Translations under genes and position numbers: made by a program
Origin: Flavobacteriaceae bacterium
Lineage (GTDB): Bacteria; Bacteroidota; Bacteroidia; Flavobacteriales; Flavobacteriaceae
Direction of reading: 5' to 3'
DNA length: 64,000 nt
Assembly (NCBI GenBank): GCA_030065775.1
Contig: JASJDL010000001.1
Span: forward strand, 687-64,686
The notes under the pieces: model-generated
What the model saw: the letters and a program-made list of their open reading frames with translations, nothing else
The model's database searches: none
Told to the model about the DNA's origin: nothing
Shown here: positions 7,963 through 39,140 of the stretch, piece by piece
Numbering within the stretch: the first letter of the stretch is position 1
Layout of the letters: each line of letters starts with the position of its first letter

Positions 7963-7990
7963 ATTATCTATTCGAAAGAACGAGAAATCT

Positions 7991-17272: not shown

Positions 17273-17275
17273 GCC

Positions 17276-17836
17276 TTAAAAAATTAGTGGAAATAAAATG
17301 TGGATCATGAACAGTCCGCCCAAAAAGAAACCTATGACTGCTAGTAATGAGGGTACTTGAAGGTTGCTCAACCCAGATATGGCATGCCCGGAAGTGCAAC
17401 CACCGGCATAACGGGCTCCAAAACCTACTAAAATACCACCAACGGCAAGTATGAGCACGCTTTTGAAATTATACATAGCTGAAAGACCGAATAACTCTGT
17501 AGGTAAATAGGCGTCGCCTGCACTTTGAAATCCAAGTTCATTCAATCGTTCTACCGTCTTGGGATTAATTGTGACGGATGGGTCATTCGTTAAAAAGAAG
17601 GATGCTATAAAACCTCCGATAATAACACCAAGAACAACGATGAGATTCCAACGTTGCGCTTTCCAATCGAACTTAAAAAAATCTGCCGTTTTATCGGCTC
17701 CACAAATAGTACAAAGCGTTCGCAGATTAGAAGACATGCCAAATGTTTTATCTATCATGATCAGTAAAAACATCACCAATGCTATCATAGCCCCTGAAGT
17801 GTACCAGGGCCAGGGTTCGAAAATCCAGTTCATCAT
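17276..17836 (-). CDS. YeeE/YedE (PmpA-like) sulfur-compound transporter subunit
   Basis: GGILVGFGARYAGGCTSGHAISGL motif. Confidence 0.92.
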   Translation of the reverse strand: MMNWIFEPWPWYTSGAMIALVMFLLIMIDKTFGMSSNLRTLCTICGADKTADFFKFDWKAQRWNLIVVLGVIIGGFIASFFLTNDPSVTINPKTVERLNELGFQSAGDAYLPTELFGLSAMYNFKSVLILAVGGILVGFGARYAGGCTSGHAISGLSNLQVPSLLAVIGFFLGGLFMIHILFPLIF

Positions 17837-17962: not shown

Positions 17963-19210
17963 TTATACGTCCTTTCCCTTCAACATTTTATTCCAGTAGA
18001 GGTAGGGAAGCATATATTTTTTCAGGATCCACAATCTCCAGTGCTCTTTAGAAGAATCAGAAATAAGCATTCGTTTCAATTTTGGGTCGGGGGTAAAATT
18101 TCCATCGTAATCGAATTCAGCTAAGACCATTTTTCCATAATCTGTGACCAAAGGACATGAAGAATAACCATTATAAGCCATATTTCCTTTTTTAGCATGT
18201 TCAATTAATAAGGAAATATTGTCAACTGCTACGGGTACCTGTTTTCGGATAGCAGCGCCCGTTTTTGCAGTAGGTAAACCACAGACATCGCCTAGACCAA
18301 AAATATTGCTATATTTCTTATGTTGCATGGTATATTGATCTACATCAAGCCATTTAGCATCATTTACCAAGGGTGATTCTTGTATAAACTTAGGTGCCAC
18401 TGAAGGTGGGGCAGTATGCAACATATCATAGTGGATGCCAATAAGATCGCCATCTTTTGATATTTTAATGTCTTTGGAGTTTACTTCTGACTGGTTATCA
18501 CCTAAAGCATACCAGGCTATTTTATTTTCTCCATCTATTTTTTTCAACTGGTGCCCGAAGCGTAGATGCGTATCTTTTTTAGTATTTACTTCCATTAAGG
18601 TTTTCTTAATCTCGGGTATTCCAAAGATGACACCACCGCTCGTGGCAAACACAACGTTACTTTGTTTTCTGACACCGCTTTTTCTAAAATGACTTTCAGC
18701 CAGATACATTATTTTTTGTGGGGCTCCACCACATTTTATAGGGGTAGTGGGTTGTGTAAATAGTGCAGTTCCGCCTTTGAAATTCTTAATCACATTCCAG
18801 GCGTGTTTAGGATCGGTATAAACACTGCAGACAACACCTTTATCCATAGCTTCGCCTAATCCGGGCACCAAAGAATAGTCATATACCAAACCCGGGGCAA
18901 CTACCAAATAATCATAAGTATGGTCACCACTTGATTTGGTTGAAACAGTATTCTTTTCAGGATCAAAAGCGGTTGCATAATCTTTAATCCAGTGTACTCC
19001 TCTGGGCATTACACTAGCCATTGGTTTGGCGGTTTTATCAAAATTATAGGTGCCAGCTCCTACCAAGGTCCAGGCGGGCTGGTAGTAATGTGTGTCCGCT
19101 GGTTCTATAAGTCCGATACTATATTTCTTATTTTTTTTCAATAATTGAGCGGCGGCCATAATACCGGCCGTTCCTCCTCCTATGATCAATACTTGATGAT
19201 GAGAACTCAT
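17963..19210 (-). CDS. sqr: Sulfide:quinone oxidoreductase, type II
   Basis: GGGTAG FAD motif, HYYQP.WT.VG.G, KCGGAPQK, KTGAA and YSSCPLVT redox-Cys motifs, AEFDY. Confidence 0.92.
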   Translation of the reverse strand: MSSHHQVLIIGGGTAGIMAAAQLLKKNKKYSIGLIEPADTHYYQPAWTLVGAGTYNFDKTAKPMASVMPRGVHWIKDYATAFDPEKNTVSTKSSGDHTYDYLVVAPGLVYDYSLVPGLGEAMDKGVVCSVYTDPKHAWNVIKNFKGGTALFTQPTTPIKCGGAPQKIMYLAESHFRKSGVRKQSNVVFATSGGVIFGIPEIKKTLMEVNTKKDTHLRFGHQLKKIDGENKIAWYALGDNQSEVNSKDIKISKDGDLIGIHYDMLHTAPPSVAPKFIQESPLVNDAKWLDVDQYTMQHKKYSNIFGLGDVCGLPTAKTGAAIRKQVPVAVDNISLLIEHAKKGNMAYNGYSSCPLVTDYGKMVLAEFDYDGNFTPDPKLKRMLISDSSKEHWRLWILKKYMLPYLYWNKMLKGKDV

Positions 19211-21329: not shown

Positions 21330-21343
21330 GTAACTTAAGTTAC
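21330..21343 (-). promoter_or_regulatory. GTAAC-N4-GTTAC box, distal fadL-like promoter
   Basis: TGTAACTTAAGTTACA perfect palindrome; -7 TAGATTTG at 21300-21307, offset 30. Confidence 0.88.
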
Positions 21344-22068: not shown

Positions 22069-23478
22069 TTACAATGTGCTTGGACACACGTAATCAGTCA
22101 TTTCTACACCAGCTTCTTTCATTGCTTTATACCCACCGGCCACATCAATTATATTATGAATTCCTCTGCTTTTCAGGATAGATGCTGCTACAATGCTTCT
22201 GTAGCCGCTAGCACAATGCACATAGAAATTTTCTTTATCGGGAAATTCCGCTAAATGATCATTTAAGAAGTCGAGAGGTGTATTATTGGCGTCAACCACA
22301 TGCTCTGACTGAAATTCTCCTTTTTTACGTACATCAAATACTTTTATTTTTTCTGCGTCCATGGCTTCTTTGAAAGCATCCGCCGAAATAGACGTTAGTG
22401 TATCATATTCTTTTGAGGCGTTTTTCCATGACTTAAAACCACCTTTTAAATAACCTAATGTGTTGTCAAAACCAACTCGGGAGAGTCTGGTAACAGCTTC
22501 TTCTTCTCTTCCTTCAGGAGTCACAAGTAAAATGGGTTGCTGCACATCGGCTATTAATGCGCCCACCCAGGGGGCGAAACTTCCGTCAAGGCCTATGAAA
22601 ATGGATCTTGGAATATGTCCTTCTGTGAATTCAGTTTTGCCACGTACATCCAAAACCACGGCATCTGTTTCATTGGCGGCTGCCTCAAAAGCATCTGGTG
22701 ATAATGCCTGTGTACCGCGCTTGATGACCTCATCAATATCAGCATATCCTTCTTTATTCATTTTGACATTTAATGGAAAATATGCTGGTGGCGGTAACAA
22801 GCCTTCCGTTACTTCTTCAATAAATTCTTCCCGCGTCATGTTTGCACGAAGGGCATAATTAGTTTTTTTCTGATTACCTAAAGTATCAACTGTTTCCTTA
22901 CTTAGGTTTTTACCGCATGCTGAACCGGCTCCATGCGCTGGATATACGATGACATCATCGGCTAACGGCATAATTTTAGAGCGCAGGCTGTCGAATAAAG
23001 TACCAGCCAATTCCTCTTGGGTCATATCGGCAGCTTTTTGAGCGAGATCGGGTCTTCCCACATCACCTAAAAATAGAGTATCTCCACTAAAAATCGCATG
23101 ATCTTTACCATCCTTATCTCGTAATAAATACGTAGTACTTTCCATGGTATGGCCTGGGGTATGTAGTGTAACAATCGTACTATCTCCAAGTTTAAATTCC
23201 TGACCGTCTTTCGCTATAATCGCGTCAAAACTAGGGTTCGCATTTGGACCATAAATAATAGGTGCACCTGTCTCCTTCGATAAAGTAACATGACCACTTA
23301 CAAAATCGGCATGAAAATGTGTTTCGAAGACATATTTGATAGTGGCATTGTTCTTTCTTGCCTTATCAATATATGGTTTTACTTCTCGTAAAGGGTCTAT
23401 GATGGCCACTTCACCATTACTTTCAATATAATAAGCACCCTGAGCGAGGCAACCGGTATAAATCTGTTCTATGTTCAT
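22069..23478 (-). CDS. MBL-fold persulfide dioxygenase fused to two rhodanese domains (CstB-like), copy 1
   Basis: ETHFHADFVSG, HTPGHT, GDTLF.GDVGRPDL, HGAGSACG, C-terminal rhodanese HCASGYRS. Confidence 0.9.
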   Translation of the reverse strand: MNIEQIYTGCLAQGAYYIESNGEVAIIDPLREVKPYIDKARKNNATIKYVFETHFHADFVSGHVTLSKETGAPIIYGPNANPSFDAIIAKDGQEFKLGDSTIVTLHTPGHTMESTTYLLRDKDGKDHAIFSGDTLFLGDVGRPDLAQKAADMTQEELAGTLFDSLRSKIMPLADDVIVYPAHGAGSACGKNLSKETVDTLGNQKKTNYALRANMTREEFIEEVTEGLLPPPAYFPLNVKMNKEGYADIDEVIKRGTQALSPDAFEAAANETDAVVLDVRGKTEFTEGHIPRSIFIGLDGSFAPWVGALIADVQQPILLVTPEGREEEAVTRLSRVGFDNTLGYLKGGFKSWKNASKEYDTLTSISADAFKEAMDAEKIKVFDVRKKGEFQSEHVVDANNTPLDFLNDHLAEFPDKENFYVHCASGYRSIVAASILKSRGIHNIIDVAGGYKAMKEAGVEMTDYVCPSTL

Positions 23479-23534
23479 TATTCTTTATGCTTTAATTCTA
23501 GTGACAAAAATACTATAATAGATTTTTTGTATCA

Positions 23535-23548
23535 GTAACCAAAGTTAC
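23535..23548 (-). promoter_or_regulatory. GTAAC-N4-GTTAC box upstream of PDO-rhodanese copy 1
   Basis: GTAACCAAAGTTAC; -7 TATTTTTG at 23505-23512, offset 30. Confidence 0.88.
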
Positions 23549-23619
23549 ATAGGTTTATTCAATACCTGACTCAATACGATTAATTGCATTGGGCCAGGTT
23601 TACTGATTCACCGCAAAAA

Positions 23620-25032
23620 TTATAACATTGTGGTGGGGCAAATATACTCAGATTTTGGTACTGAAGTTTCTTTGATTTCGTCGAATCCTTCAGTGATATC
23701 TTTTATATCCTGCCAACCCCTTTGTTTTAAAATGGATAAAGCGATCATACTCCTGTAACCACTTCGGCAATGAAGGATAATTGGTTTATCTTTGGGTAGC
23801 TCAGCCAGGTGTTTATTGATCTCATTTAATGGAATATTGTAAGCACCTTCGACATGTTGTGAGTCATATTCACTTTTCTTACGAACATCAAAAACCAAAA
23901 GATCTTTAGTAAACATTTTTTCAAATTCTTTAACGCTTATTCTTCCAACAGTTTCAATTTCTTTACCTGCATTTTTCCAAGTATCAAACCCTCCTTTTAG
24001 GTAACCAATGGTGTGATCATAACCAACTCGGGATAAACGTGTAATAGCTTCTTCTTCTTTACCAGGATATGTTATCAACAAGATTTCTTGTTTCACATCA
24101 GGAATCATCTCACCTACCCACTGGGCGAAATTACCATCTAACCCAATATTGATACTGTTTGGAACGAATCCTTTAGCGAAGTCATCAGCATCTCTGGTGT
24201 CTAAGACCAAAGCGCCTGTTTCGTTAGCGGCAGCATCAAAAGCATCTGGGCTAAACAAATGACTTGCTCTGGTCATGACGGTATCCAGGCTGTCATATCC
24301 TTTTATGTTCATTAATACATTTTGAGGAAAGTATCCCGGAGGCGCTGTTAAACCAGTTAATAACTCTTCAATAAATTCCTCTTTAGTCATGTCTGCCCTC
24401 AACGCATAATTTACCTCTTTTTGATGGCCTAAAGTATCTGTGGTTTCTTTACTCATCATTTTACCACAAGCCGAACCGGCACCATGGTTAGGATACACGA
24501 TTAAATCATCACTTAAAGGCATAATTTTAGTTCTTAAGGAATCATATAAATGCCCTGCGAGTTTTCGCTCTGTAAGATCAGAAACAACATGCTGCGCAAG
24601 GTCAGGACGCCCTACGTCACCGATAAATAAGGTGTCACCTGTAATGATACCGTGTTCCTGATCATTTTCATCAATTAATAAGTATGTTGTACTTTCCATG
24701 GTATGCCCAGGAGTATGTATTACTTTGACTTTGTAATTACCGACATTAAAAATCTGGCCGTCTTTTGCAACTGTGGCTTCATAGCCTGGTTTAGCAGTTG
24801 GTCCAAAAACAATTTCAGCTCCGCTCTTTTTTCTTAGATCCAGGTGCCCACTTACAAAATCTGCGTGGAAATGTGTTTCAAAAACATATTTTATCTCTGC
24901 ATTATCAATTTGTGCTCTGTCAATGTAAGGTTGTACCTCACGTAAAGGGTCGAAAACCGCTGCCTCACCATTATTCTCTATATAATATGCGGCGTGCGCT
25001 AAACATCCGGTATAAATTTGTTCTACTTTCAT
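23620..25032 (-). CDS. MBL-fold persulfide dioxygenase fused to two rhodanese domains (CstB-like), copy 2
   Basis: Same motifs as copy 1; rhodanese loop HCRSGYRS; ATG at 25032 (MKVEQIYTGCL) by homology to copy 1. Confidence 0.9.
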   Translation of the reverse strand: MKVEQIYTGCLAHAAYYIENNGEAAVFDPLREVQPYIDRAQIDNAEIKYVFETHFHADFVSGHLDLRKKSGAEIVFGPTAKPGYEATVAKDGQIFNVGNYKVKVIHTPGHTMESTTYLLIDENDQEHGIITGDTLFIGDVGRPDLAQHVVSDLTERKLAGHLYDSLRTKIMPLSDDLIVYPNHGAGSACGKMMSKETTDTLGHQKEVNYALRADMTKEEFIEELLTGLTAPPGYFPQNVLMNIKGYDSLDTVMTRASHLFSPDAFDAAANETGALVLDTRDADDFAKGFVPNSINIGLDGNFAQWVGEMIPDVKQEILLITYPGKEEEAITRLSRVGYDHTIGYLKGGFDTWKNAGKEIETVGRISVKEFEKMFTKDLLVFDVRKKSEYDSQHVEGAYNIPLNEINKHLAELPKDKPIILHCRSGYRSMIALSILKQRGWQDIKDITEGFDEIKETSVPKSEYICPTTML

Positions 25033-25089
25033 TTTTATTTTTTTAAAAATTATATCTACGAAAGTTACCAGCAATTATTATTATATACA

Positions 25090-25129: not shown

Positions 25130-26878
25130 CTATTTATTGGTCTGCCGAATGTATTTGTGGAATTTATCGGGCTTTTCCTTCCCTTCTTTCATGATTGAAT
25201 AGGCGTCAACTGCTTCCTGAATACTCATGAAACAATTATCGTAACCCAGAATGTTCATTACACCCCCTTTGTCTAGGGCATCCCTTACGGGGCCTTTAAT
25301 TCCTGAAAACACCACTTGAATGTTCTGACCACCGTAATATTCTAAGACTTCAATTAAGGTATGAACACCGGTACTATCAATGGTATTCATACTTTCGCAA
25401 TCAATAATAATGAGTTGGAGCGCCGGACCTTTTTCTACCACTAATTCCTCTAATGTATCTTTAAAAAAAGTAGTGTTTGCGAAATATAATTGGGCATCAA
25501 ACCGTACGATCAAAATATCATCTTTTACGATTACATCCTTACCAAAGCGTTCTACATTTCTATAAAAATGTGTCCCATGTATGTTTGCCAATACCGCCAC
25601 ATGTGGCCTGGTGGTTTTCAGAATGACCATGACTAAAGAAAGAATGACACCCACACCAATTCCTTTTTCGATACCAAGAGTTAAGGTAGCGAAAAAAGTG
25701 GCAAGCAGCAGAAAGAAATCAGTTCTATTGCTTTTCCACAAGTACAACACTTCCTTATAATCGATCAGCCCGAAAACAGCCACCATGATAACCGCAGCCA
25801 GAATTGATTTTGGAAGATTGTGAAAATAAGGCGTTAAAAATAAAAGTGTTATTACAATAAGGATGGCACTGACGACTGATGCCATAGTTGTTTTAGCGCC
25901 AGCCTGATCACTTACGGCTGTCCTTGAAAATCCACCTGTCGTAGGATAGGATTGAAAAAAAGAACCTATGATATTGGCCAGACCTAATCCTATCAATTCC
26001 TGGTTTGGTACCACTTTGTAGTCTCTGTGTTTTAATTGGATCGCCTTCGCCACAGCGATGCTTTCCATAAAACTGACGAATGCAATGGTAGCAGCCATTG
26101 GTAAAAGTATATTTATGACCTTTAGATCAAACGAAGGAATGCTAAAACCTGGTAATGAACTGGGGATTTCACCAACGATCTTAACAGGATTGTTCCCCTG
26201 ATTGAGCCCAAAAATAGATACGGCTAATATTCCAAATACAACAGCAAGTAGTTGACTCGGAAAACCTTTCTTTATTTTTTTAGATAGTATTATAATCAAG
26301 ATTCCAATACTTCCAATTCCAAAGGATATCCAGTTAATTTCATCGAATTTACTAATTGCATTCAACAAAATCTCATGGATATGGTGTGACCTTGGTATGT
26401 CTATGCCCAATAAACTTTTTAACTGACTAAGCCCAATAATGAGGGCTGCCGCTGATGTAAAGCCACTTATGACCGGGTGAGAGAGAAAATTGACCAGAAA
26501 ACCAAGCTTGAAAATCCCTAATAGAAACTGAATGGCACCTACTAGAAAAGCTAAAATGATCGCATACATAATGTATTGTTCTATTGTAATGCCTTCAAAT
26601 GAGCTAATGGCTGTGGCCGTTAATAAGGATACCATAGCTACGGGCCCAACAGCAAGTTGTCTGGAGGTGCCAAGTAGCGCATAAATTAATAAAGGAACAA
26701 TCGAAGCGTACAAACCATAAACTTCAGGTAGACCGGCAATGGAAGCATAGGCCATACCTTGCGGAATCAACATAATACCAACTGTTAACCCGGCGCCAAT
26801 ATCGCCTTTCAGCCAACTTCTCTTATAATTGGGGGCCCATTCTAAAACTGGCAGTATCGATTTCAACGAAATTTTCAT
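25130..26878 (-). CDS. SulP/SLC26 anion transporter with STAS domain
   Basis: IPQGMAYA...GLP..YGLY, GGFSRTAV, LYFAN, IDSTG. Confidence 0.93.
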   Translation of the reverse strand: MKISLKSILPVLEWAPNYKRSWLKGDIGAGLTVGIMLIPQGMAYASIAGLPEVYGLYASIVPLLIYALLGTSRQLAVGPVAMVSLLTATAISSFEGITIEQYIMYAIILAFLVGAIQFLLGIFKLGFLVNFLSHPVISGFTSAAALIIGLSQLKSLLGIDIPRSHHIHEILLNAISKFDEINWISFGIGSIGILIIILSKKIKKGFPSQLLAVVFGILAVSIFGLNQGNNPVKIVGEIPSSLPGFSIPSFDLKVINILLPMAATIAFVSFMESIAVAKAIQLKHRDYKVVPNQELIGLGLANIIGSFFQSYPTTGGFSRTAVSDQAGAKTTMASVVSAILIVITLLFLTPYFHNLPKSILAAVIMVAVFGLIDYKEVLYLWKSNRTDFFLLLATFFATLTLGIEKGIGVGVILSLVMVILKTTRPHVAVLANIHGTHFYRNVERFGKDVIVKDDILIVRFDAQLYFANTTFFKDTLEELVVEKGPALQLIIIDCESMNTIDSTGVHTLIEVLEYYGGQNIQVVFSGIKGPVRDALDKGGVMNILGYDNCFMSIQEAVDAYSIMKEGKEKPDKFHKYIRQTNK

Positions 26879-26936
26879 GAATTAATTTGTAAGGAATTCT
26901 CGATGGCAAAGATACTCCTAAACAGAGTTATTATTT

Positions 26937-26950
26937 GTAACTATTGTTAC
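26937..26950 (-). promoter_or_regulatory. GTAAC-N4-GTTAC box upstream of SulP
   Basis: GTAACTATTGTTAC; -7 TATCTTTG at 26907-26914, offset 30. Confidence 0.88.
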
Positions 26951-26957
26951 TTGCTAT

Positions 26958-28682
26958 TCAAAGGACCTCATGGCACTCTTTAAATGCCTTTTTAGTACAG
27001 GGTTGTTTTAGTTGGTTATGAATTGCTATAATCGCACTTCTTTTATCCTTAAAGAAGATGTGTTCACCTACACGTTTCTTGAAGCCTCCGGTTTCCAGCA
27101 CATCCTGACTTACGAGTTTTAGTCCTGCGATATAAATCCCACCACGATGTTCTTTCCACTTGAGCATTTCATAGGTTAACCATTCTGCAGCAGCCAAGTC
27201 AATGAAATTTATGCCGTCAGCGGCAATGAGTACATAGTCAATTTTATTTTCATCGTATAAGTTCGCAAAAAAGTCTGCAATTTTTTCAATAGACCCAAAA
27301 TATAGTGATCCGTCAATGCGCACGATTTTCATACTCGAACACTCTTTTGCTTCCGAATCTCGAATGGTATTTACCAAGCGTCCCTTCTCATCTAGTGCTA
27401 AAATGGCGATGTTCGGTTTGGAGGTTCTTTCAAGATAAAAGAAGAATGAAGTAATGATTCCGGCCAATAATGCAAATTCGAGATCAAAGAAAAGCGTTCC
27501 AACCAGTGTAACTGTTAAGACGATAACTTCCTTACCACTACTTTTGTATACTTGTTTTATATGATGAAAATCTATAAGATTATAACCAACAAGAAGAATA
27601 ATTCCACCCATGGTCGCCTTTGGTAAATATGCTGCATAACCTGCCAGTGTTAGTACCACAGCCATTAGTAAAATGGAGGCGAAGATTGCTGCCATTGGGG
27701 TTTTGGCCCCGGCTTGATGATTCACGCCAGAGCGCGTGAAGGAGCCTGATCCGGCATAACTTGAAAAGAAACTAGCTATTAAATTAGAGAGTCCTTGACC
27801 GATAAATTCTTGATTACCATCAATTTTTTGATGTGTTTTTAAGGCAATTGCCCGTCCTATCGCAACGGCTTCTATAAGCCCGAGCAGTGCAAGTACCATC
27901 GCTCCCGAGCTTAATTTCTGAACATTTTCAATAGTCAATTCAGGAATTCTGAATGGAGGCAGGTTTGAAGGCACATTACCAACAGTTTCAATCCCTTGTT
28001 GTTCCCCGCCCATTAACAGTGCTAAAACACTTCCCAATACCATGGCGATCAACATATAATATCGCGAAAGCGGTTTTATAAGGTGCTTAATTACTAAAGC
28101 TACCAGTAAAGTGCCTATAGCCACAATAAAAACATTCCAATTCGTGCTTGATATATTTTCGGCTATATGGGTAATGATCTCCAAAATGGTACTTCCCTGA
28201 GGAACTTTAATGGCAAATACATGGCTTAATTGTTTGAATGCGATGAGTATACCGGCCCCTGCGGTAAATCCTATAATCACTGAATGTGAAACGAAATTTA
28301 CAAGCTTGCCCATTTTCATTAACCCCATCAAAAATTGGAAAAGACCAGTAAGAAAAGTTAAAACCAGGGCCATTGAAACAAACATTTCAACATCACTTTC
28401 GGGGTTTAGATTCAATTTTACGAGTGTAGCATATACAACGATTGAAATAGCTGTAGTTGGCCCGGAAATTAAATGATAAGATGAGCCAAATAAAGCAGCG
28501 ATGATAGGAGTGATCATAGCAGTATAAAAACCATAAATTGGAGGGAGGCCTGCAATTATGGCGAAAGCTACAGCTTGTGGAATTACAATAACTGTTCCGG
28601 TAATGCCAGCAATCAGATCATCTTTCCATGTGGTTTTGACTTTTGGAAGCCATAACAGAAAAGGAAACAGTTTACTAAGCAT
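26958..28682 (-). CDS. SulP/SLC26 anion transporter with STAS domain (in the molybdoenzyme operon)
   Basis: IPQAVAFA.IAGLPP.YG, SGSFTRSGVN, GSLYFG, INFIDL. Confidence 0.93.
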   Translation of the reverse strand: MLSKLFPFLLWLPKVKTTWKDDLIAGITGTVIVIPQAVAFAIIAGLPPIYGFYTAMITPIIAALFGSSYHLISGPTTAISIVVYATLVKLNLNPESDVEMFVSMALVLTFLTGLFQFLMGLMKMGKLVNFVSHSVIIGFTAGAGILIAFKQLSHVFAIKVPQGSTILEIITHIAENISSTNWNVFIVAIGTLLVALVIKHLIKPLSRYYMLIAMVLGSVLALLMGGEQQGIETVGNVPSNLPPFRIPELTIENVQKLSSGAMVLALLGLIEAVAIGRAIALKTHQKIDGNQEFIGQGLSNLIASFFSSYAGSGSFTRSGVNHQAGAKTPMAAIFASILLMAVVLTLAGYAAYLPKATMGGIILLVGYNLIDFHHIKQVYKSSGKEVIVLTVTLVGTLFFDLEFALLAGIITSFFFYLERTSKPNIAILALDEKGRLVNTIRDSEAKECSSMKIVRIDGSLYFGSIEKIADFFANLYDENKIDYVLIAADGINFIDLAAAEWLTYEMLKWKEHRGGIYIAGLKLVSQDVLETGGFKKRVGEHIFFKDKRSAIIAIHNQLKQPCTKKAFKECHEVL

Positions 28683-28746: not shown

Positions 28747-31656
28747 TTAATTAGTATCACTTATAAAATAGCATCCACCTTCTATTTTATCGGGCGTAAA
28801 TGCTCTTTTAAACCATAATGGACGTCGTTCACCATTAGGTCCGGGGGCAGGTCGAGTCATTGATAGCCATTCTTTATAAATCTCATGTGATTTATTAGTA
28901 TCTACAACTATGTCACCGTAGTTTTCGTTAGGCCCGGGCTTCTCAATTCGAACACGCTGATGCCAGCAATGCATACCACTAATGGGGTCGGGATGTACGG
29001 CATGCGTGATATTTTGGTGTACACCACCATCTTTCCAAAAGATACGTTTCGAATCACTATCTTCAGATTCAAATGGTTGTATTCCCGAAAGCGTATTCAT
29101 ATGCCATTTACCTTGTCCGTCATTTTCAATATTAACAGTATTAGTGGCCCATCTATTTCCTATTTTATCTTGTGTTCTTCGCCATCTTCCTATGTGATGT
29201 GAGCAGGCAACTACACCTGGTTTCATACTTTGAGTCACCCATACTTTATCAATGAAGTAGCCAATATCTGTATTCATTTTGACTAAGTCCCCTGTTTTAA
29301 ATCCCCATTTAGCCGCGTCTTCCGGATGCATCCAGATCGGATTTCTATTGGAGATCTCCACCAGCCATTTGGCATTTCCCGATCGTGTATGAATTAAAGT
29401 TGGTAACCTGAAGGTAGGTACTAACACGTATTCACCTTTAGATTTGTCCAGGTGATCACTATGAATATGGCTTTTTATGTATTGGGGAATCGCATATTCG
29501 GGCCATTTCCAATCAACCATGGTTTGTGAATAGAATTCATTTTTTCTGGAAGGAGTAGGAAAGCCAACAACCGCCTTTCCTTTGATTAACACGCCAATAG
29601 CTTTTCCTTCTTTATAAACTACATCGGTTTTTTTATCGATAGTTGAACCTTCGAGCTGTTGCTCTGTTAATAGGGTTTCATTTACTTTATAAGACTCTCC
29701 CTGTTCTATTTCATAGGCTCCATATTTTTGCATATAGTTCAACTCTGCAAAAGGACCGGTAAAGCCATCAGCTTTAGCTGCTTCTGGTAGACCATTTACC
29801 CGTTCAAAAATGTATTGATAGTATTCTTCAATGGTGATTTTTTCTCCAGGCCGGTAAGGTGATTCAAAATGTTTACGGATACCCATACTGCCGTCTGGAT
29901 CAATGCGCCACGAAAGTTCAATCCAAAATTCATCTTCCTCCCAAACTTCTCCCGGATTTGCCTGGTAAGTATATTCAACAGGATTTCCATTTCTACGGGC
30001 AGCTTCCCTGAGCACGGGTTGCCTAAAGGCCACCCAGGTTCCACCATGTGTAGCATAGGAGTTGATGTCATGTCGCTCTGAAGCTAAGCCCATGGGTAGT
30101 ACAAAATCTGCATAAAAAGCCGTTTCATTCCAGGTGGGTGTCAAGGCGGCATGCACGCCGAATTTATCTTCATCAGTTAATTGTTCAATCCATGTAAATC
30201 CGTCGGGATAGGTCCATACAGGATTAAATACCCTTGTAAAATAAACATCCATTTTACCACGGCCTTCCTTGAGAAAATGAGGTAATAACTGACTCATTTC
30301 AAAAAAGGCGAGTGGGTACTCTCTTGGGAAATGTAGCTCATTCCACTTTTTATGAGGTTCAGGAGGATTTGGTTGTGTAGGGCTAAACTTATTCCATGAA
30401 TTCGGTGAAGTACCCCCTTTTGTACCTACAGCGCCGGTTAATACTGTTAAGAAATGTAAGCATCGTGCGACACACCAGCCCCCTAAATTTGATGCTCCAG
30501 CAGCGCGCCAGTTATGTGATGCGAATCGCTCTCCGGCTTTGCCAATTTCTCTGGCTATTTCTATGATTGTCGAAGCCTTAACACCAGATTCTTTTTCGGC
30601 AAATTCAGGCGTAAATTCTTTATATTCTTCGATCATCGAACTTATGTAGTTCTCAAAAGTCACTTTTTTCTTCGGATGCCTGGCCTCCAAATATTCCTTC
30701 CAATTTGTCCAATTTTCTAGATATTCTCTATTGTATAGCCCTTCTTTTAGAATGATTACTGCCATAGCCAATAAAACGGCAGCCTCGGTTCCGGGATAAG
30801 TGGGAAGCCAATAATCAGACATTGAAGCCGTATTTGATAATCTTGGGTCCATCGTGGCCAGCTTGGCGCCTTTCATTTTGCCTTCAATGATGCGTTGTGC
30901 ATGCGGATTAAAATAATGCCCAGACTCTAAGTGGGCAGATACCAATAAGATGAATTGGGCATTGGCATGGTCTGGTGATGGGCGATCGTAACCATACCAT
31001 ATATTATAGCCGAATCGCGCTCCCGATGAACAAATATTGGTATGCGAATTGTGACCATCGATTCCCCATCCTTGTAAAATCCAGTTCATGAATTTTTCAT
31101 GCCCTGGACGCCCAACATGGTATGCAACTTCGTTATGACGATCTTCTTTGATGGCTTTTCTAATTCTTGTTGAAAGCGTATCCAATACTTCATCCCATGT
31201 TACCCGTTCCCATTCGCCATCACCTCTTTTTCCTTTTCGTTTTAGAGGGAATAATATCCGGTCGGGATCTTTAATTTGATTGATTGTCGCGGGCCCTTTA
31301 GCGCAATTCCTGCCTCGACTTCCGGGATGATGAGGATTCCCCTCAAATTTCTTGACTTCCTGGGTTTCTTTCTCAATAAATGCTGTTAAGCCACAAGCAC
31401 TCTCGCAATTAAAACAAGTAGTCGGTACGATCTGATAGGTCTTTTTAACCTTTTTTGGCCATGCTTTGGGATCGTATTCGATCCAATTATCCCAGGTCTC
31501 AGGAGAGGGAAAATTTTCATACATTTCTGCGATTTCTTCATCGCTAAATTTCCGCATGTCTTGATCAGTCTCCTGGCGATTATCTTTGTGTAGATTTGGA
31601 ATGACCCCTAACTTTTCTGCTATGTTTTCGATGAATGAAGGTTTTTTATATCCCAT
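28747..31656 (-). CDS. Molybdopterin (bis-MGD, DMSO reductase family) oxidoreductase catalytic subunit, Psr/Soe/Arr-like, no Tat signal
   Basis: TTCFNCESAC...NCAKG FS0 cluster, DPDRILFPLKR.G.RG.G.WERVTWDE, SHTNICS putative Cys ligand, ETA.YAD.VLP, MHPEDA..G..GD.V; no RRxF motif. Confidence 0.9.
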   Translation of the reverse strand: MGYKKPSFIENIAEKLGVIPNLHKDNRQETDQDMRKFSDEEIAEMYENFPSPETWDNWIEYDPKAWPKKVKKTYQIVPTTCFNCESACGLTAFIEKETQEVKKFEGNPHHPGSRGRNCAKGPATINQIKDPDRILFPLKRKGKRGDGEWERVTWDEVLDTLSTRIRKAIKEDRHNEVAYHVGRPGHEKFMNWILQGWGIDGHNSHTNICSSGARFGYNIWYGYDRPSPDHANAQFILLVSAHLESGHYFNPHAQRIIEGKMKGAKLATMDPRLSNTASMSDYWLPTYPGTEAAVLLAMAVIILKEGLYNREYLENWTNWKEYLEARHPKKKVTFENYISSMIEEYKEFTPEFAEKESGVKASTIIEIAREIGKAGERFASHNWRAAGASNLGGWCVARCLHFLTVLTGAVGTKGGTSPNSWNKFSPTQPNPPEPHKKWNELHFPREYPLAFFEMSQLLPHFLKEGRGKMDVYFTRVFNPVWTYPDGFTWIEQLTDEDKFGVHAALTPTWNETAFYADFVLPMGLASERHDINSYATHGGTWVAFRQPVLREAARRNGNPVEYTYQANPGEVWEEDEFWIELSWRIDPDGSMGIRKHFESPYRPGEKITIEEYYQYIFERVNGLPEAAKADGFTGPFAELNYMQKYGAYEIEQGESYKVNETLLTEQQLEGSTIDKKTDVVYKEGKAIGVLIKGKAVVGFPTPSRKNEFYSQTMVDWKWPEYAIPQYIKSHIHSDHLDKSKGEYVLVPTFRLPTLIHTRSGNAKWLVEISNRNPIWMHPEDAAKWGFKTGDLVKMNTDIGYFIDKVWVTQSMKPGVVACSHHIGRWRRTQDKIGNRWATNTVNIENDGQGKWHMNTLSGIQPFESEDSDSKRIFWKDGGVHQNITHAVHPDPISGMHCWHQRVRIEKPGPNENYGDIVVDTNKSHEIYKEWLSMTRPAPGPNGERRPLWFKRAFTPDKIEGGCYFISDTN

Positions 31657-31668
31657 TTTAATGAAGTA

Positions 31669-33285
31669 TTAAGCGAGTGGTATTCTTTGAGGTGCTTCAA
31701 CCCAAATTTTTTCTGTAAAATAAATTCCTAAGAATATCGATAAAGCAGCAAGTGTTAACGTTGCTGTTGTAGGTTGGATGAATAGCAATACCAATGGTAG
31801 CACGTTACCTATTATAAGGGATCCCACCCAAAACAATGTTTTATACCTACCTGATGTGATCATTTTAACGACACTTTTTGCAGCAGTAGTAGCGTGTGTG
31901 GTTGTTAGTTCTGTTATCAACGTAAAAAGATTTACTAATAAGGCCCCAATTAAAATTGGCTTTAAGATTAGCATCCAGGATTCACTTCCTGCAATAAACC
32001 CGATGAAAATAAAGACAGCAGCACCCGCCATGATACTATGAACTAACATGTGTAGCACGAGTGAAGGACTTTGCCAGAAATCCCTTCCTTTGGCCTGAGC
32101 GAAAAGAAACGCTGTATATGTTGCTAAAAGAACTGCAAAAACTGCAGTGACCCATAGCAAGGGTTTTTCAGGGATCGTCCAATTAAAATAGGTGGCCGCC
32201 CCCCATAATGTTACCAGTAGTCCAAAGATGGTAATGGTATAGCCTCCTTTCACCAACCATGAGTTCCATTGCGGCCGTAATAAGACATATAAAAATCTGT
32301 CGGGCCTGTCTAAATCTAGAACTAGAAATAATCCTGTTAAAGCCAAAAAGAACAAAGAAACACCTACTGACCATAATTTGGTCGTGTCAGATAAATCATA
32401 TCCAACTAATAGGGCCACAAAAGGAATTAAAAAAGTCCCGGCAGCAATAGCTTTTGTAATGACATAGGCTATTACCTCCCAACCCCATAATATACCTTTA
32501 TCAGGAGTATCATAGACTCTTCTTGCCGAACCATTTAATACGTCAATATAATTTGGATTTTCAGACTCCTTTCGTTGGTAAGCTGCTTCGATTTCATTGT
32601 CTATGGATAGCTGCAACAAATCAATATCATCATTCGTATTGATCATTTTTTCGGCTGCTTTGGCGAAATGGCCAACGCCCCTTGCCTGGGAATTCCAAAG
32701 TCCGGGCCCGGACGGATGTGTAGCTTCAGGATTTAAAGAAGCCTCATCACCGTCTATGTAGTATAAATTTGGATGTGTACCTTTTTCGGGTTTTCTAACC
32801 TTAACCTGCTGCCGCGCCAATAATTGTGAAATTTCGGTTTGTGGATTTTCCATATCGCCTGCAATTATTGCATGTTCAGGGCAAACACTTACACAGGCAG
32901 GCTCCCGGCCAACATCAACGCGATGTGCACAATAGTTACACTTTGCAGCTGTGTGGGTTTCAGGATCAATATATAGGGCATCATACGGACAAGCTTGCAT
33001 ACACGATTTACACCCGATACATCTGTCATTGTCGAAGTCTACGATGCCATCATCTCTGACATATAAGGCCTCTACAGGGCAAATTTCCACACATGGGGCA
33101 TCAGTACAATGATTGCACCGCATTACCGAAAATATTCTTCGGGTATTTGGAAATTGACCTTTTTCTACTTGTTTTACATACGTACGATTAACTCCTACAG
33201 GAACATCATGCTCGGATTTACAGGCTGTAGTACAGGCATGACAACCGATACACTTTCGATTGTCAATTATAAATCCATATTTCAT
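31669..33285 (-). CDS. Fused 4x[4Fe-4S] ferredoxin (NrfC/PsrB-like) and NrfD/PsrC-like 8-TM anchor
   Basis: CIGCHACTTAC, CNHC..APC..ICP, CIGCKSC..ACP and CNYC...PAC...CP motifs, then WG..V..Y, DLDRPDRF and about 8 TM helices. Confidence 0.92.
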   Translation of the reverse strand: MKYGFIIDNRKCIGCHACTTACKSEHDVPVGVNRTYVKQVEKGQFPNTRRIFSVMRCNHCTDAPCVEICPVEALYVRDDGIVDFDNDRCIGCKSCMQACPYDALYIDPETHTAAKCNYCAHRVDVGREPACVSVCPEHAIIAGDMENPQTEISQLLARQQVKVRKPEKGTHPNLYYIDGDEASLNPEATHPSGPGLWNSQARGVGHFAKAAEKMINTNDDIDLLQLSIDNEIEAAYQRKESENPNYIDVLNGSARRVYDTPDKGILWGWEVIAYVITKAIAAGTFLIPFVALLVGYDLSDTTKLWSVGVSLFFLALTGLFLVLDLDRPDRFLYVLLRPQWNSWLVKGGYTITIFGLLVTLWGAATYFNWTIPEKPLLWVTAVFAVLLATYTAFLFAQAKGRDFWQSPSLVLHMLVHSIMAGAAVFIFIGFIAGSESWMLILKPILIGALLVNLFTLITELTTTHATTAAKSVVKMITSGRYKTLFWVGSLIIGNVLPLVLLFIQPTTATLTLAALSIFLGIYFTEKIWVEAPQRIPLA

Positions 33286-33366: not shown

Positions 33367-33380
33367 GTAACAAAAGTTAC
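33367..33380 (-). promoter_or_regulatory. GTAAC-N4-GTTAC box upstream of the molybdoenzyme operon
   Basis: GTAACAAAAGTTAC; -7-like TATATTTA at 33336-33343, offset 31. Confidence 0.85.
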
Positions 33381-33438: not shown

Positions 33439-34074
33439 CTAGTCTAAATTAATGACCTCAATATTATTTCTGTGAAGTTCTATTTTATCTTGATTTTCAA
33501 GTTTCTTCAATAATCTTGAAACCACAACCCTTGATGTATGGAGTTCGTACGCAATTTGCTGATGTGTATTGTGAATAATATTATCTTCCGATATTCTAGA
33601 TTTTTCTTTTAGGTATTTTAACAAGCGCTCATCCATATTCAAAAAAGCGATGCTGTCTATAGTTTCGAGCATTTCATTGAGTCGGTTGTGATAACTTTCG
33701 AAAACAAAATTTCTCCAGCTTTTGTATTTGGCCGACCATTCCTCCATTTTTCGAACAGGAATCATAATAAGCTTAGTATCAGTTTCGGCAATAGCGCGAA
33801 TTTCACTTTTTGTTTGTCCTAAGCAACATGTAAGCGTCATGGCACAGGTATCACCTTTTTCCAAAAAATATAAAAGTAATTCATCGCCGTCATTATCTTC
33901 CCGCAATATTTTAATTGCTCCTGAGATCAATAAGGGTATCGATTTAATATAATCTCCAATTTCAATCATTTTGTGTCCTTCGGGAACTTCTTTGAAAGTT
34001 CCCACCTGATTTATTTCTTGAATAAGGGCGTCTTCGAAAAGATGACCATAATTCATTTTTAGCTCCTCAACCAT
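33439..34074 (-). CDS. Crp/Fnr family transcriptional regulator
   Basis: cNMP-binding-like domain with CAMTLTCC, RLL.YL, HTH THQQIAYELHTSRVVVSRLLKKLE. Confidence 0.93.
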   Translation of the reverse strand: MVEELKMNYGHLFEDALIQEINQVGTFKEVPEGHKMIEIGDYIKSIPLLISGAIKILREDNDGDELLLYFLEKGDTCAMTLTCCLGQTKSEIRAIAETDTKLIMIPVRKMEEWSAKYKSWRNFVFESYHNRLNEMLETIDSIAFLNMDERLLKYLKEKSRISEDNIIHNTHQQIAYELHTSRVVVSRLLKKLENQDKIELHRNNIEVINLD

Positions 34075-34680: not shown

Positions 34681-36261
34681 ATGTTAAAAACTATTAAGAG
34701 TGACTTGCCAGCGAGCATAGTCGTATTTTTTGTTGCAATACCGTTGTGTCTGGGTATTGCATTAGCAAGTGGGGCACCACTTTTTTCAGGACTCATTGCA
34801 GGTATCATTGGTGGAATAGTTGTAGGGTCCATAAGTGGTTCAAAAATTGGTGTCAGTGGCCCGGCAGCAGGTCTAGCTGCCATTGTGCTGGCGGCCATAG
34901 CAACATTGGGTGGATTCGAGAACTTTTTGGTTGCTGTCGTTTTAGGAGGCATCATACAAATAGTGTTTGCCGTACTGAAGGCGGGAGTCATTGGCTATTA
35001 TTTTCCTTCCTCAGTAATCAAGGGGATGTTAACAGGAATTGGAATCATTATCATTTTGAAACAAATTCCTCATTTCTTTGGCTATGACGCTAGTCCTGAA
35101 GGTAATTTTGCTTTTTTTCAGGTTGACGGTGAAAATACATTTTCAGAAATACTGAAGACATTCAATTATATACAGCCAGGTTCAGCTTTGATCGGGTTAA
35201 TAGGACTGATAATTCTAATTCTATGGGAAAAAGTTTTATCGAAAAAAGCAAAAATATTTCAACTTGTACAAGGGCCATTGGTCGCTGTAGTACTAGGAAT
35301 TGTTTTTTATGTAATTACAAAATCAAACGAATTTCTCGGAATTGGTTCAACGCACTTGGTGAGCATTCCAGTACCTGAAGACGCATCATCTTTTCTTGCT
35401 CAGTTTAGTTTTCCCAATTTTGCGGCAATAACCAATCCCGATATTTGGATAGTTGCCTTTACATTGGCATTGGTTGCCAGTTTGGAAACACTGTTGTGCG
35501 TTGAGGCAACCGATAAACTAGATCCGCACAAAAATGTCACACCAACAAATAGAGAGTTATTTGCTCAAGGAACCGGGAATATCATTTCAGGTATGATCGG
35601 CGGATTACCGATTACCCAGGTGATTGTACGAAGTTCTGCAAACATTCAATCAGGGGGCAGGTCTAAGCTATCGGCCATTATTCATGGATTTTTCTTATTA
35701 ATTTCAATCGTACTGATTCCCAGGCTGTTAAATATGATACCCTTATCGGTACTCGCAGCCATTTTATTATTGGTTGGTTATAAGCTTGCGAAACCAGCTC
35801 TGTTCAAACAAATGTATGATTTGGGTTGGAAGCAATTCATTCCTTTTACTGTAACCGTGCTCGGAATCATCTTTACGGATTTATTGATAGGAATCGGAAT
35901 GGGACTAGCAGTAGGAATTGTGGTAATCCTTATAAAGAGCTACCAAAATTCACATTTCCTGCATATTGAAGATAAGAGTAATGGAAAGCACAAGATTAAA
36001 ATGACATTAGCTGAGGAAGTAACGTTTTTTAACAAAGGGGCTATACTCAAAGAACTGGATAGCTTACCACTTGATACCTTTCTTGAGCTTGATGTTCGTA
36101 AGACGCGTTATCTGGACAATGATATCATCGAGATTCTGGAAGACTTTGCCTTTAAGGCAAAAGAAAGAAATATCGATATCAAATTGATTTCAGAAAGAGG
36201 GGTTGCTGAAAACCCTGATAGTTTTATACAATTCTTTAAACTAAGGCCAAAGGTCGCTTAA
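34681..36261 (+). CDS. SulP family anion (probably bicarbonate) transporter
   Basis: PLCLGIALASGAP, SGPAAGL, TQVIVRSSAN; this clade is typically linked to carbonic anhydrase. Confidence 0.9.
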   Translation: MLKTIKSDLPASIVVFFVAIPLCLGIALASGAPLFSGLIAGIIGGIVVGSISGSKIGVSGPAAGLAAIVLAAIATLGGFENFLVAVVLGGIIQIVFAVLKAGVIGYYFPSSVIKGMLTGIGIIIILKQIPHFFGYDASPEGNFAFFQVDGENTFSEILKTFNYIQPGSALIGLIGLIILILWEKVLSKKAKIFQLVQGPLVAVVLGIVFYVITKSNEFLGIGSTHLVSIPVPEDASSFLAQFSFPNFAAITNPDIWIVAFTLALVASLETLLCVEATDKLDPHKNVTPTNRELFAQGTGNIISGMIGGLPITQVIVRSSANIQSGGRSKLSAIIHGFFLLISIVLIPRLLNMIPLSVLAAILLLVGYKLAKPALFKQMYDLGWKQFIPFTVTVLGIIFTDLLIGIGMGLAVGIVVILIKSYQNSHFLHIEDKSNGKHKIKMTLAEEVTFFNKGAILKELDSLPLDTFLELDVRKTRYLDNDIIEILEDFAFKAKERNIDIKLISERGVAENPDSFIQFFKLRPKVA

Positions 36262-37262: not shown

Positions 37263-39140
37263 ATGAAAAATTTATTTACGAACATCAAAGGTGATGCGTT
37301 TGGTGGTATCACGGCCGGCATTGTTGCATTACCGTTGGCTTTGGCCTTTGGTGTATCATCAGGTTTAGGGCCAAGTGCCGGATTGTATGGTGCTATTTTT
37401 ATTAGCTTTTTTGCTGCTCTTTTTGGTGGCACAAATACCCAAATATCTGGGCCAACCGCACCAATGACCGCCGTAAGTATGGTCATCATCGCCACGATTA
37501 TTGCCGCGAACGATGGTGATGTTAACAAAGCCTTACCCGCAATTTTGGCCATATTCTTGTTAGCCGGATTAATGCAAATTGGACTTGGGGTAATTGGTCT
37601 TGGTAAATATATTCGATATATACCGTATCCTGTAGTCTCCGGTTTTATGACGGCAATTGGTGTCATCATTCTGGTCACACAAATTTTGCCTTCATTGGGA
37701 TATTATCCTAAAGAAGACGCTGAGTATGTCGGTCAGTACAAAGTACAGGCCGAAGAAGTGATATTGGAAAATATTTTGAAAGAGGAAGCAGGAGAAGACA
37801 TTCTGGTACTCGAAGATTTTCAAGAAACCATTAACAGGGCGAGTCAGGTTACCGAAGCTGATATCTTGAAGGAATCGCAGACCTTAGCTGCGAAGGATGC
37901 CTCCGGTGTTGTTGGTGCTCTTAAAGTCTTACCGAGAGCACTTCAAAATATTAGTTGGTTAGAAGTAGTACTGGCATTAGGTACAATCATTATAATTTAT
38001 GGCTTTAAGCGTATAACAACCGTGGTGCCCAGTACCCTGGTAGCGCTATTGGTAATGACAGGTATCGCCATTGGCTTTGGCCTGGATTACCGCCCTATTG
38101 AGAAAATCCCTGAAGGCTTGCCCAAATTCAGAATGGATATTTTTACAGGGTTCAGCCTAGGAAGCATTACTCCATATTTCTTTACGGCATTGACCCTGGC
38201 CTTGTTAGGAGCTATAGACTCTTTATTGACGAGTGTAGTGGCAGATAACATGACCAAGACCAAGCATAAACCCGATAAAGAATTGGTAGGTCAAGGTATT
38301 GGAAATAGTGTTGCTGCTCTCTTTGGCGGAATACCCGGAGCAGGTGCAACGATTCGTACGGTCGTAAACATTAATTCTGGTGGTAAAACCAGATTGTCAG
38401 GTATGATTGCCGGTCTATTATTATTTGTCATCTTATTGGCAATTGCTCCTTTGGCTTCCAGAATCCCGGCGGCTGTTCTGGCCGGAATCTTAATAACGGT
38501 TGGGATCGGTGTGATGGATTATAAAGGATTACGCGCTATTCCGGCATTACCTAAGGATGGTAAAATTGGCCCGTTCAAATTCAGTATGGAAGTTGTTATT
38601 ATGTTGGTAGTGTTGATTCTTTCTACGTTCTGGAACCTGGTATACGCTGTGGGTATCGGATTGGTCATTGCATCTTTAATGTTCATGAAGAAAATCGGTG
38701 ATTTGACTGCAGAACGCTCTGACGTAAAAACACTGAAAAAGGAGAGATTCTGGAAAGACGAAGAAGATTTTCCAGAAGAGTACAAAGAAAAAGTGTTCAT
38801 CAAACATATTAAAGGGCCCTTATTTTTTGGTTCTACCAGTGACTTCCAGGCATTAGCACAACAAATACCCGCGACAGCTAACACCGTAATTATGCGATTA
38901 GACCGTATGCAGTATATGGATCAGTCAGGCCTCTATGCCATGGAAGACATGCTGTTAGATTTAAGGAAAAAAGAAGTTGAAGCCCTCTTCGTTGGAATGC
39001 TACCCCAACCAAGATATATGATGGAACGCATTGATATTATTCCTGATTTTATACCCGAAGAACACATTTTCGAAACTTTTGATGAATGTGTTGCTTGGAT
39101 TAAAGAAAATATAAATAACAATAAGAATAACAATAAGTAA
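37263..39140 (+). CDS. SulP family transporter, BicA-like, with STAS domain
   Basis: GD.FGGITAGIVALPLALAFG, QISGPTAPM, GAGATIRTVVN, GPLFFG. Confidence 0.92.
   Translation: MKNLFTNIKGDAFGGITAGIVALPLALAFGVSSGLGPSAGLYGAIFISFFAALFGGTNTQISGPTAPMTAVSMVIIATIIAANDGDVNKALPAILAIFLLAGLMQIGLGVIGLGKYIRYIPYPVVSGFMTAIGVIILVTQILPSLGYYPKEDAEYVGQYKVQAEEVILENILKEEAGEDILVLEDFQETINRASQVTEADILKESQTLAAKDASGVVGALKVLPRALQNISWLEVVLALGTIIIIYGFKRITTVVPSTLVALLVMTGIAIGFGLDYRPIEKIPEGLPKFRMDIFTGFSLGSITPYFFTALTLALLGAIDSLLTSVVADNMTKTKHKPDKELVGQGIGNSVAALFGGIPGAGATIRTVVNINSGGKTRLSGMIAGLLLFVILLAIAPLASRIPAAVLAGILITVGIGVMDYKGLRAIPALPKDGKIGPFKFSMEVVIMLVVLILSTFWNLVYAVGIGLVIASLMFMKKIGDLTAERSDVKTLKKERFWKDEEDFPEEYKEKVFIKHIKGPLFFGSTSDFQALAQQIPATANTVIMRLDRMQYMDQSGLYAMEDMLLDLRKKEVEALFVGMLPQPRYMMERIDIIPDFIPEEHIFETFDECVAWIKENINNNKNNNK

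Follow-up and report, generated by a model that had tools for sequence, protein, structure and literature searches.

A PSRLC3-type two-gene molybdoenzyme in a flavobacterial sulfur island, probably a sulfite oxidase facing the cytoplasm

Which reaction is carried out by a molybdoenzyme that is encoded by only two genes, carries no export signal and lies among genes of sulfide oxidation? The question is raised by a gene pair in a 64,000-nucleotide stretch of DNA from a Flavobacteriaceae bacterium (assembly GCA_030065775.1, contig JASJDL010000001.1, positions 687 to 64,686 of the forward strand), which is called the window here. One gene encodes a ferredoxin fused to a membrane anchor (BC) and the other encodes the catalytic subunit (A). 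By its sequence, the pair is an ortholog of the two-gene polysulfide-reductase-like complex 3 (PSRLC3) of green sulfur bacteria. An anchor holds the complex in the inner membrane, and its redox domains all lie on the cytoplasmic side, as its architecture, the missing export signals and an inverted charge bias indicate. It is probably a SoeABC-like, sulfite-oxidizing enzyme that forms the end step of a sulfide-oxidation island.

The BC gene lies upstream of the A gene with a gap of 12 nucleotides, and the pair is composed of the following parts.

31669-33285, minus strand: BC gene, 538 amino acids
32746-33285, minus strand: ferredoxin domain (PsrB/SoeB-like), residues 1-180, with four Cys4 motifs for four [4Fe-4S] clusters
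32497-32745, minus strand: linker of about 80 amino acids, residues 181-263, weakly conserved
31669-32496, minus strand: NrfD/PsrC-type eight-helix quinone-binding anchor, residues 264-538 and the stop codon
28747-31656, minus strand: catalytic A gene, 969 amino acids

Both open reading frames (ORFs) begin at the earliest possible start codon past an in-frame stop, so that neither protein has a longer, hidden N-terminus. The BC protein opens straight at its first cluster motif, and a signal peptide is absent. Its residues 2-180 belong to Fer4_11, are PsrB/NrfC/TtrB-like and match Thermus PsrB with an E value of 3.9e-48, and all 16 ferredoxin cysteines are invariant in an alignment of 34 homologs. 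The consensus of the linker is mostly x and its pLDDT is below 50. The Pfam NrfD domain spans residues 264-518, and AlphaFold2 places eight transmembrane helices with confidence in residues 269-533. An earlier note on this DNA had described a ferredoxin and an NrfD anchor fused into one protein of 538 residues by a linker of about 80 residues and encoded before the catalytic gene, and both the ORFs and the Pfam domains agree with that description. In one Bacteroidota genome (G036, locus L016, 8642-10329) BC is present as two overlapping ORFs, B of 256 and C of 503 amino acids, which is either a frameshift or a natural unfused variant.

At least 8000 homologous proteins exist for each subunit, all with generic labels such as 'molybdopterin-dependent oxidoreductase', 'NrfD/PsrC family molybdoenzyme membrane anchor subunit' or the COG0243 name used by JGI. 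The representatives and members of the nearest 50%-identity clusters have only generic names, as do the ESM Atlas entries, and a homolog search from the divergent protein P0247 returned only generically named proteins of Acidobacteriota, Actinobacteria and Chloroflexi. In an even sample of 401 Bacteroidota genomes an ortholog was present in 60, and 41 of the 87 genomes of one family (f24) have it at 65-67% identity. The FMO bacteriochlorophyll a protein was found in all three f24 genomes tested, and these are therefore green sulfur bacteria. In two of these three a fused BC gene (517-530 amino acids) directly precedes an A gene (958 amino acids), and the identity to the window proteins is 51% for BC and 65% for A. 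Chlorobium sp. N1 (65%) and metagenome-assembled genomes (MAGs) of Chlorobiaceae match the window A subunit at 65-66%. In a quick maximum-likelihood tree (LG+G4), which contains long rows, the window A subunit and the green-sulfur-bacterial proteins form a 99* clade inside a long-stemmed 100* clade. The latter is separate from PhsA, ArxA and the Azoarcus-type enzymes. This main split is backed by the identities, which are 55-66% inside the family compared to about 25% to PhsA.

The family is widespread, with relatives at 53-89% identity in many bacterial phyla and in haloarchaea. A genome scan gave more than 600 matching stretches. The best 80 of these loci, several of which end at contig ends, all have at least 60% identity to the window A subunit, and in 72 of them a fused BC gene lies directly upstream of A; the remaining eight were not inspected. 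The closest named relatives among these 80 loci are in Gaetbulibacter sp. S0825 (89%) and Lutibacter (86%). Copies with at least 60% identity were found in Saprospiraceae, Cyclobacteriaceae, Calditrichota, KSB1, Planctomycetota, Acidobacteriota, Ktedonobacterales, Marinimicrobia and Binatia. A tblastn search of plasmids added A-subunit copies at 53-57% identity in Thermomicrobium roseum, Rhodococcus jostii RHA1 and several haloarchaea, and the fused gene is directly upstream of A in the three loci inspected (T. roseum, RHA1 and Natrinema halophilum). The distribution is patchy in the window's own family (f1): none of the 28 other genomes sampled has an ortholog, and the nearest copies are those of Gaetbulibacter and Lutibacter. 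The sulfur island is an accessory trait in this family.

The A subunit contains three Pfam domains that are typical of the catalytic subunit of enzymes with a molybdenum-bis(pyranopterin guanine dinucleotide) (Mo-bisPGD) cofactor. The cysteines of the FS0 cluster are C81, C84, C88 and C118, encoded at 31303-31416. Residues 204-210, encoded at 31027-31047, have the sequence SHTNICS, which the earlier note had proposed as the Mo-ligand segment. The alignment agrees, because C209 coincides with the Mo-ligand position in both Thermus PsrA and Shewanella ArrA. Across 89 family members this cysteine never varies, and the surrounding motif DGHNSHTN[IV]CS has a single exception, N207T.

Several other features of the A subunits were observed. 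Residues 1-20 of the window protein (31600-31656) contain a conserved motif, IE-x-IAEKLG-x-IP-x-LH, that is not a twin-arginine translocation (Tat) signal and is common to flavobacteria, green sulfur bacteria and Natrinema; such a peptide may serve in docking or bind a chaperone. Four divergent clade representatives (P0246, P0247, P0250 and P0273) have neither the Mo-ligand cysteine nor any of the SHTNxCS motif, and may be cofactor-less paralogs, like QrcB and ActB, or poor gene calls. Two relatives within the same 100* clade, P0249 (1115 amino acids) and P0296 (1123 amino acids), are 32-45% identical, bear a Tat signal, keep the NSHTNICS and the N-terminal PP-x-E-x-W motifs and look like a periplasmic sister enzyme. 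A gene for an Mrp/NBP35-family ATPase overlaps and follows the A gene in plasmid pRHL3 of R. jostii RHA1 (L005, 10817-11986) and in N. halophilum (L006, 11014-12174). The ATPase may be a dedicated Fe-S maturation factor that replaces TorD; no such gene adjoins the pair in the window.

The position of the complex relative to the membrane follows from several lines of evidence. The earlier note had found no Tat signal on either protein, and this was borne out: both A and BC lack a twin-arginine motif or a hydrophobic signal region, and none of the 89 family A subunits has a motif of the S/T-RR-x-F-L-K type. The 'RR' motifs of some homologs were rejected as Tat signals, being either the conserved RRYxL stretch before FS0 or artefacts of over-extended ORFs. 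A TorD-type chaperone gene, also reported missing before, was not found by its family PF02613 in the window's 80%-complete genome, although the control genomes gave matches.

The charge distribution of the anchor was counted in an alignment of 75 fused homologs as lysines and arginines per loop, with the window helices as boundaries. The stretch before the first helix, loops 2-3, 4-5 and 6-7 and the C-terminal tail constitute the N-terminal side. The window anchor has 14 positive residues on this side and 2 on the opposite side, the mean of the 75 homologs is 14.7 versus 1.1, and the smallest difference in the family is 7. The counts are reversed in the anchors of relatives that are separate NrfD proteins: 3 versus 6 in Azoarcus KH32C, 5 versus 8 in Sulfurovum mangrovi and 7 versus 9 in Cereibacter ArxC. 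A TorD gene lies beside all three of these loci, and the Azoarcus A subunit and Cereibacter ArxA have Tat signals. The charge bias of the PSRLC3-type family is therefore inverted compared to its Tat/TorD-type relatives. The conserved anchor loops DLDRPxRF and AKGRDFWQSP are on the N-terminal, cytoplasmic side. Since the Fe-S domain is covalently attached to the N-terminus of the anchor, it must sit on that side as well. The positive-inside argument of the earlier note, which had placed the N-terminus, the ferredoxin and the DLxRPxRF loop in the cytoplasm, thus holds for the window and for all 75 homologs. In the S. mangrovi plasmid locus (L008, 5989-9157) the A gene consists of two overlapping ORFs (5989-7002 and 6944-9157). 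This gene has no entry in the PLSDB gene table and is probably a frameshifted or pseudogenized copy.

The surroundings of the pair in the window are rich in sulfur genes.

33439-34074, minus strand: Crp/Fnr-family regulator, directly upstream of the pair and adjoining the first box
33367-33380: palindrome GTAACAAAAGTTAC (GTAAC-N4-GTTAC box), 82 nucleotides upstream of the BC start codon
26958-28682, minus strand: SulP permease, 64 nucleotides downstream of the A gene
25130-26878, minus strand: second SulP permease, with its own box at 26937-26950
22069-25074, minus strand: two fusions of a metallo-β-lactamase (MBL) fold and a rhodanese, read as persulfide dioxygenase (PDO)-rhodanese proteins, each with its own box
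17963-19210, minus strand: sulfide:quinone reductase (SQR)-like flavoprotein, with a palindrome box
16859-17836, minus strand: two YeeE/TsuA-type sulfur-transporter pieces, with a palindrome box

The GTAAC-N4-GTTAC box occurs seven times in the window (six copies are perfect) compared to 1.12 expected, and all copies are intergenic, between 17885 and 33380. Six of them are just upstream of minus-strand starts, those of BC, the second SulP, both PDO-rhodanese genes, sqr and a YeeE/TsuA-type transporter piece. The seventh (21330-21343) is about 200 nucleotides upstream of a FadL-type gene. Judged from the DNA, the common box suggests that the operon is co-regulated with the sqr, PDO-rhodanese, SulP and transporter genes. 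The Crp/Fnr protein is a candidate reader of the palindrome, and together the boxes and its gene look like a single regulon with its own regulator. The first SulP gene is probably in the same operon as A, and its product is a candidate sulfate exporter. The PDO-rhodanese pair is the likely source of sulfite in the cytoplasm. Four SulP genes are present within 14 kb, two on the minus strand in the island (25130-28682) and two on the plus strand (34681-36261 and 37263-39140); the plus-strand pair flanks a universal-stress-protein gene.

Neighbors were counted within 6 kb of the enzyme in the best 80 related loci. SulP genes were found in 23 loci, PDO-rhodanese genes in 22 and YeeE-type halves in 9; SQR-like, DsrE-like and MoaE genes are near the enzyme in 7 loci each, ThiF-family (MoeB-like) genes in 6 and TauE/SafE sulfite exporters in 5. 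In Chlorobium a TauE/SafE gene directly follows A (L072, 8777-9814) and a DsrE-like gene (DrsE_2) is nearby (L071, 10506-11015); the flavobacterial loci have SulP and PDO-rhodanese genes instead. The RHA1 copy is surrounded by genes for DsrE, TusA, three MBL proteins, a thioredoxin and ArsR-type regulators, and a CsoR-type regulator is found near the T. roseum copy. In the window's own genome, an 80%-complete MAG, no SUOX/SorA domain, DsrA or AprA was found, which makes the A-BC complex, provisionally, the only candidate found for the removal of sulfite. Another contig of this genome carries MoaC and a MobA-like gene.

These data can be assembled into a putative pathway. SQR and the two PDO-rhodanese proteins of the same regulon would carry out the intracellular conversion of sulfide to sulfite, and the Mo-bisPGD subunit, with C209 as the ligand, would oxidize the latter to sulfate. 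The two electrons would travel from FS0 along the fused ferredoxin with its four [4Fe-4S] clusters and reach menaquinone at a site on that face of the inverted NrfD anchor which points to the cytoplasm, and sulfate would leave the cell through the SulP permease co-transcribed with the pair. We infer the substrate, the direction in which electrons flow, where the quinone site lies and what SulP does. The topology, the gene context and the literature support sulfite oxidation, and with it the earlier suggestion of a cytoplasm-facing, quinone-coupled sulfur molybdoenzyme acting as a sulfite:quinone oxidoreductase. The sulfite/sulfate couple lies far below menaquinone, and the oxidative direction is strongly favored for this reason. 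The alternative offered in the earlier note, a cytoplasmic polysulfide or tetrathionate reductase, is disfavored because the operon shares its box with the sqr and persulfide dioxygenase genes. If these genes are co-expressed, the reduction of sulfane sulfur to sulfide would be futile.

A number of observations weigh against sulfite oxidation. Neither the substrate nor the direction of such an enzyme can be read from its sequence, and no report of an assay of any fused two-gene member was found in the papers examined. The window A subunit is likened to SoeA by published descriptions and not by its placement in a tree. JGI gives its family the generic COG0243 name and not soeA, and NCBIfam has no SoeA model. 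About 58 of the 80 related loci have no PDO or SulP gene inside 6 kb. In the AlphaFold2 model only the membrane part is confident; the ferredoxin domain has low confidence, and its docking on the cytoplasmic face is putative. Finally, deletion of soeABC in Ruegeria pomeroyi is reported to impair the oxidation of thiosulfate more than that of sulfite (preprint, bioRxiv 10.1101/2022.12.07.519552), so that even the canonical Soe enzymes may have a broader role.

The last point bears on the alternative that survives best, namely that a complex with the same cytoplasm-facing architecture handles another sulfur substrate (thiosulfate, protein or low-molecular-weight persulfide or polysulfide, or tetrathionate), which is either oxidized into the quinone pool or reduced with menaquinol. 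This is possible, if rather unlikely. Polysulfide, thiosulfate and arsenate reductases provide the nearest solved structures and the highest NCBIfam scores, the YeeE/TsuA-type thiosulfate-transporter pieces and the rhodanese domains belong to the same regulon, and the RHA1 and Chlorobium copies have the DsrE and TusA sulfur carriers as neighbors. The Marine Group A copy is treated as a possible polysulfide reductase by Wright et al. (PMC3906813), and the R. pomeroyi phenotype points to thiosulfate. However, the presence of TauE/SafE sulfite exporters and of SulP permeases suggests that sulfite and sulfate are handled, and the futile reduction described above would apply to sulfane sulfur. Menaquinol, moreover, is a poor reductant for polysulfide.

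The family might also do more than a plain sulfite dehydrogenase. Its inverted NrfD subunit would then couple the transfer of electrons from sulfite to menaquinone, which is very exergonic, to ion translocation, or the complex would use another cytoplasmic sulfur substrate such as thiosulfate or a carrier-bound persulfide. The identity between the proteins of flavobacteria, green sulfur bacteria, Chloroflexota, Actinomycetota and haloarchaea is 53-66%, and because this conservation is unusually high, a tightly constrained energy-conserving mechanism would fit. We regard this extended role as doubtful.

It is quite improbable that the enzyme acts in the cytoplasm on a non-sulfur oxyanion or metalloid (selenite, arsenite or tellurite) and owes its link with sulfur to a shared stress regulon. 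Arsenate and selenite enzymes are known in the wider Psr/Arr/Srr clade (PMC10100899), an S-adenosylmethionine-dependent methyltransferase gene is present in the window's island, and the RHA1 copy has the flanking ArsR-type regulators, but the neighbors that recur across phyla are sulfur-specific, no ars or selenium genes recur in the 80 related loci, and in green sulfur bacteria its neighbors are DsrE and TauE genes. A conventional outward-facing Psr-type reductase, with periplasmic redox domains exported by an unrecognized route or by hitch-hiking on a partner, finds some support in the Tat-bearing relatives P0249 and P0296 with their NSHTNICS motif, but is extremely improbable given that a Tat motif occurs in 0 of 89 family members, that the ferredoxin is joined covalently to the N-terminus of an anchor whose N-inside bias is found in 75 of 75 homologs and is opposite in the Tat-dependent relatives, and that the 80%-complete genome yielded no TorD gene.

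Sulfide oxidation by SQR and PDO in heterotrophs is usually described as stopping at sulfite and thiosulfate. If sulfite is indeed the substrate, the fused enzyme would fill the missing sulfite-to-sulfate step in many Bacteroidota, Acidobacteriota, Planctomycetota, Chloroflexota, Actinomycetota and haloarchaea. Canonical SoeABC genes have often been reported as rare or absent in surveys of marine sediments (PMC12345210). The fused two-gene enzyme, which bypasses the usual soeA annotation and is given the generic COG0243 name at JGI, would then be undercounted in surveys of sulfur-cycle genes. The window copy brings nothing new in architecture, but it is a clear-cut case of the enzyme with a regulon of its own, and its clade has cultured relatives, Gaetbulibacter and Lutibacter, with orthologs at 86-89% identity.

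Among the known systems, several characterized reductases were considered and rejected. The PhsA model of NCBIfam gave 186 bits compared to its cut-off of 694, the window protein belongs to a separate 100* clade, and it lacks the Tat signal. The TtrA and TtrB models gave 94 bits versus 1750 and 198 versus 416, respectively, and the likeness to TtrABC is confined to the B-C-A gene order, as in ttrBCA. The scores for ArrA, DmsA and QrcB were far under their cut-offs. PsrABC of Thermus thermophilus (PDB 2VPW-2VPZ) is the best match with a solved structure (E values of 2.6e-36 for A and 3.9e-48 for B) and has the same cofactor set and an eight-helix anchor. Nevertheless, it is a periplasmic, Tat-exported complex of three subunits with an A subunit of 765 amino acids and an oppositely oriented anchor, and the identity is only about 25-30% over the N-terminal half.

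SoeABC, known from Allochromatium vinosum, Aquifex aeolicus and R. pomeroyi, is closer in its properties. It is a complex Fe-S molybdoenzyme with a Cys-ligated Mo-bisPGD subunit, and SoeA has a size of about 950-1000 amino acids. Like the window pair, it lacks a Tat signal and has cytoplasmic A and B parts and an anchor of the NrfD type that is predicted to be inverted. Calisto and Pereira (PMC8076601) predicted this inversion of SoeC with SoeAB on the N-side, and listed SoeC only in Proteobacteria, Clostridia and Aquificae. Wells et al. (PMC10100899) described a large, highly conserved bSreA/SoeA lineage. In its restatement of Dahl et al. 2013, PMC8232776 calls SoeABC-type genes 'universally present' among purple or green sulfur bacteria, and the green-sulfur-bacterial complex is treated there as an enzyme of the same type. 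SoeABC is, however, encoded by three separate genes, in an A-B-C order implied by the name, whereas the window pair has the BC fusion before A. No proteobacterial soeABC was found among the plasmid tblastn matches. Candidates in Agrobacterium, Caballeronia, Ralstonia and Tritonibacter were rejected as SoeA, being unrelated molybdoenzymes.

The psrBC-psrA operon of Marine Group A (SAR406) is similarly fused and Tat-less, with BC before A. Wright et al. 2013 (PMC3906813) described the fused psrBC, the gene order psrBCA and the lack of a TAT signal in Marine Group A, green sulfur bacteria and others, concluded from the missing signal that the location is cytoplasmic and recorded the proposal that a cytoplasmic complex oxidizes Dsr-derived sulfite. 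Marinimicrobia loci match the window A subunit at 60-61%. The Marine Group A operon differs in that its discussion centers on a possible role as polysulfide reductase in oxygen-deficient water (PMC3906813) and in that it lacks a PDO/SQR island.

PSRLC3 of green sulfur bacteria, which received this name in 2008, is the closest system. It goes back to Frigaard and Bryant 2008 and Gregersen et al. 2011, as far as the passages of PMC9324843, PMC6338057, PMC5473276 and PMC3906813 that cite them convey; it is encoded by '2 genes' (PMC5473276) and has been 'inferred to be sulfite oxidase' (PMC9324843). The window pair shares with it the two genes, the fused PsrBC-like protein before the PsrA-like one, the missing Tat signal and the proposed cytoplasmic oxidation of sulfite, in addition to orthologous sequences (A 65%, BC 51%) and a common position in the tree (99*). 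The differences concern the host. The window belongs to an aerobic flavobacterium in whose 80%-complete genome DsrA was not found, and sulfite would come from persulfide dioxygenase rather than from reverse DsrAB. The neighbors in the window are SulP, PDO and SQR genes under a Crp-type box, whereas the Chlorobium loci have TauE and DsrE. Co-occurrence with Dsr, which was not seen in this 80%-complete genome, describes the green-sulfur host group and is not a definition of the PSRLC3 enzyme. The architecture had thus already been named and published for PSRLC3 and Marine Group A, which the earlier note missed, and it is the normal layout of a widespread family.

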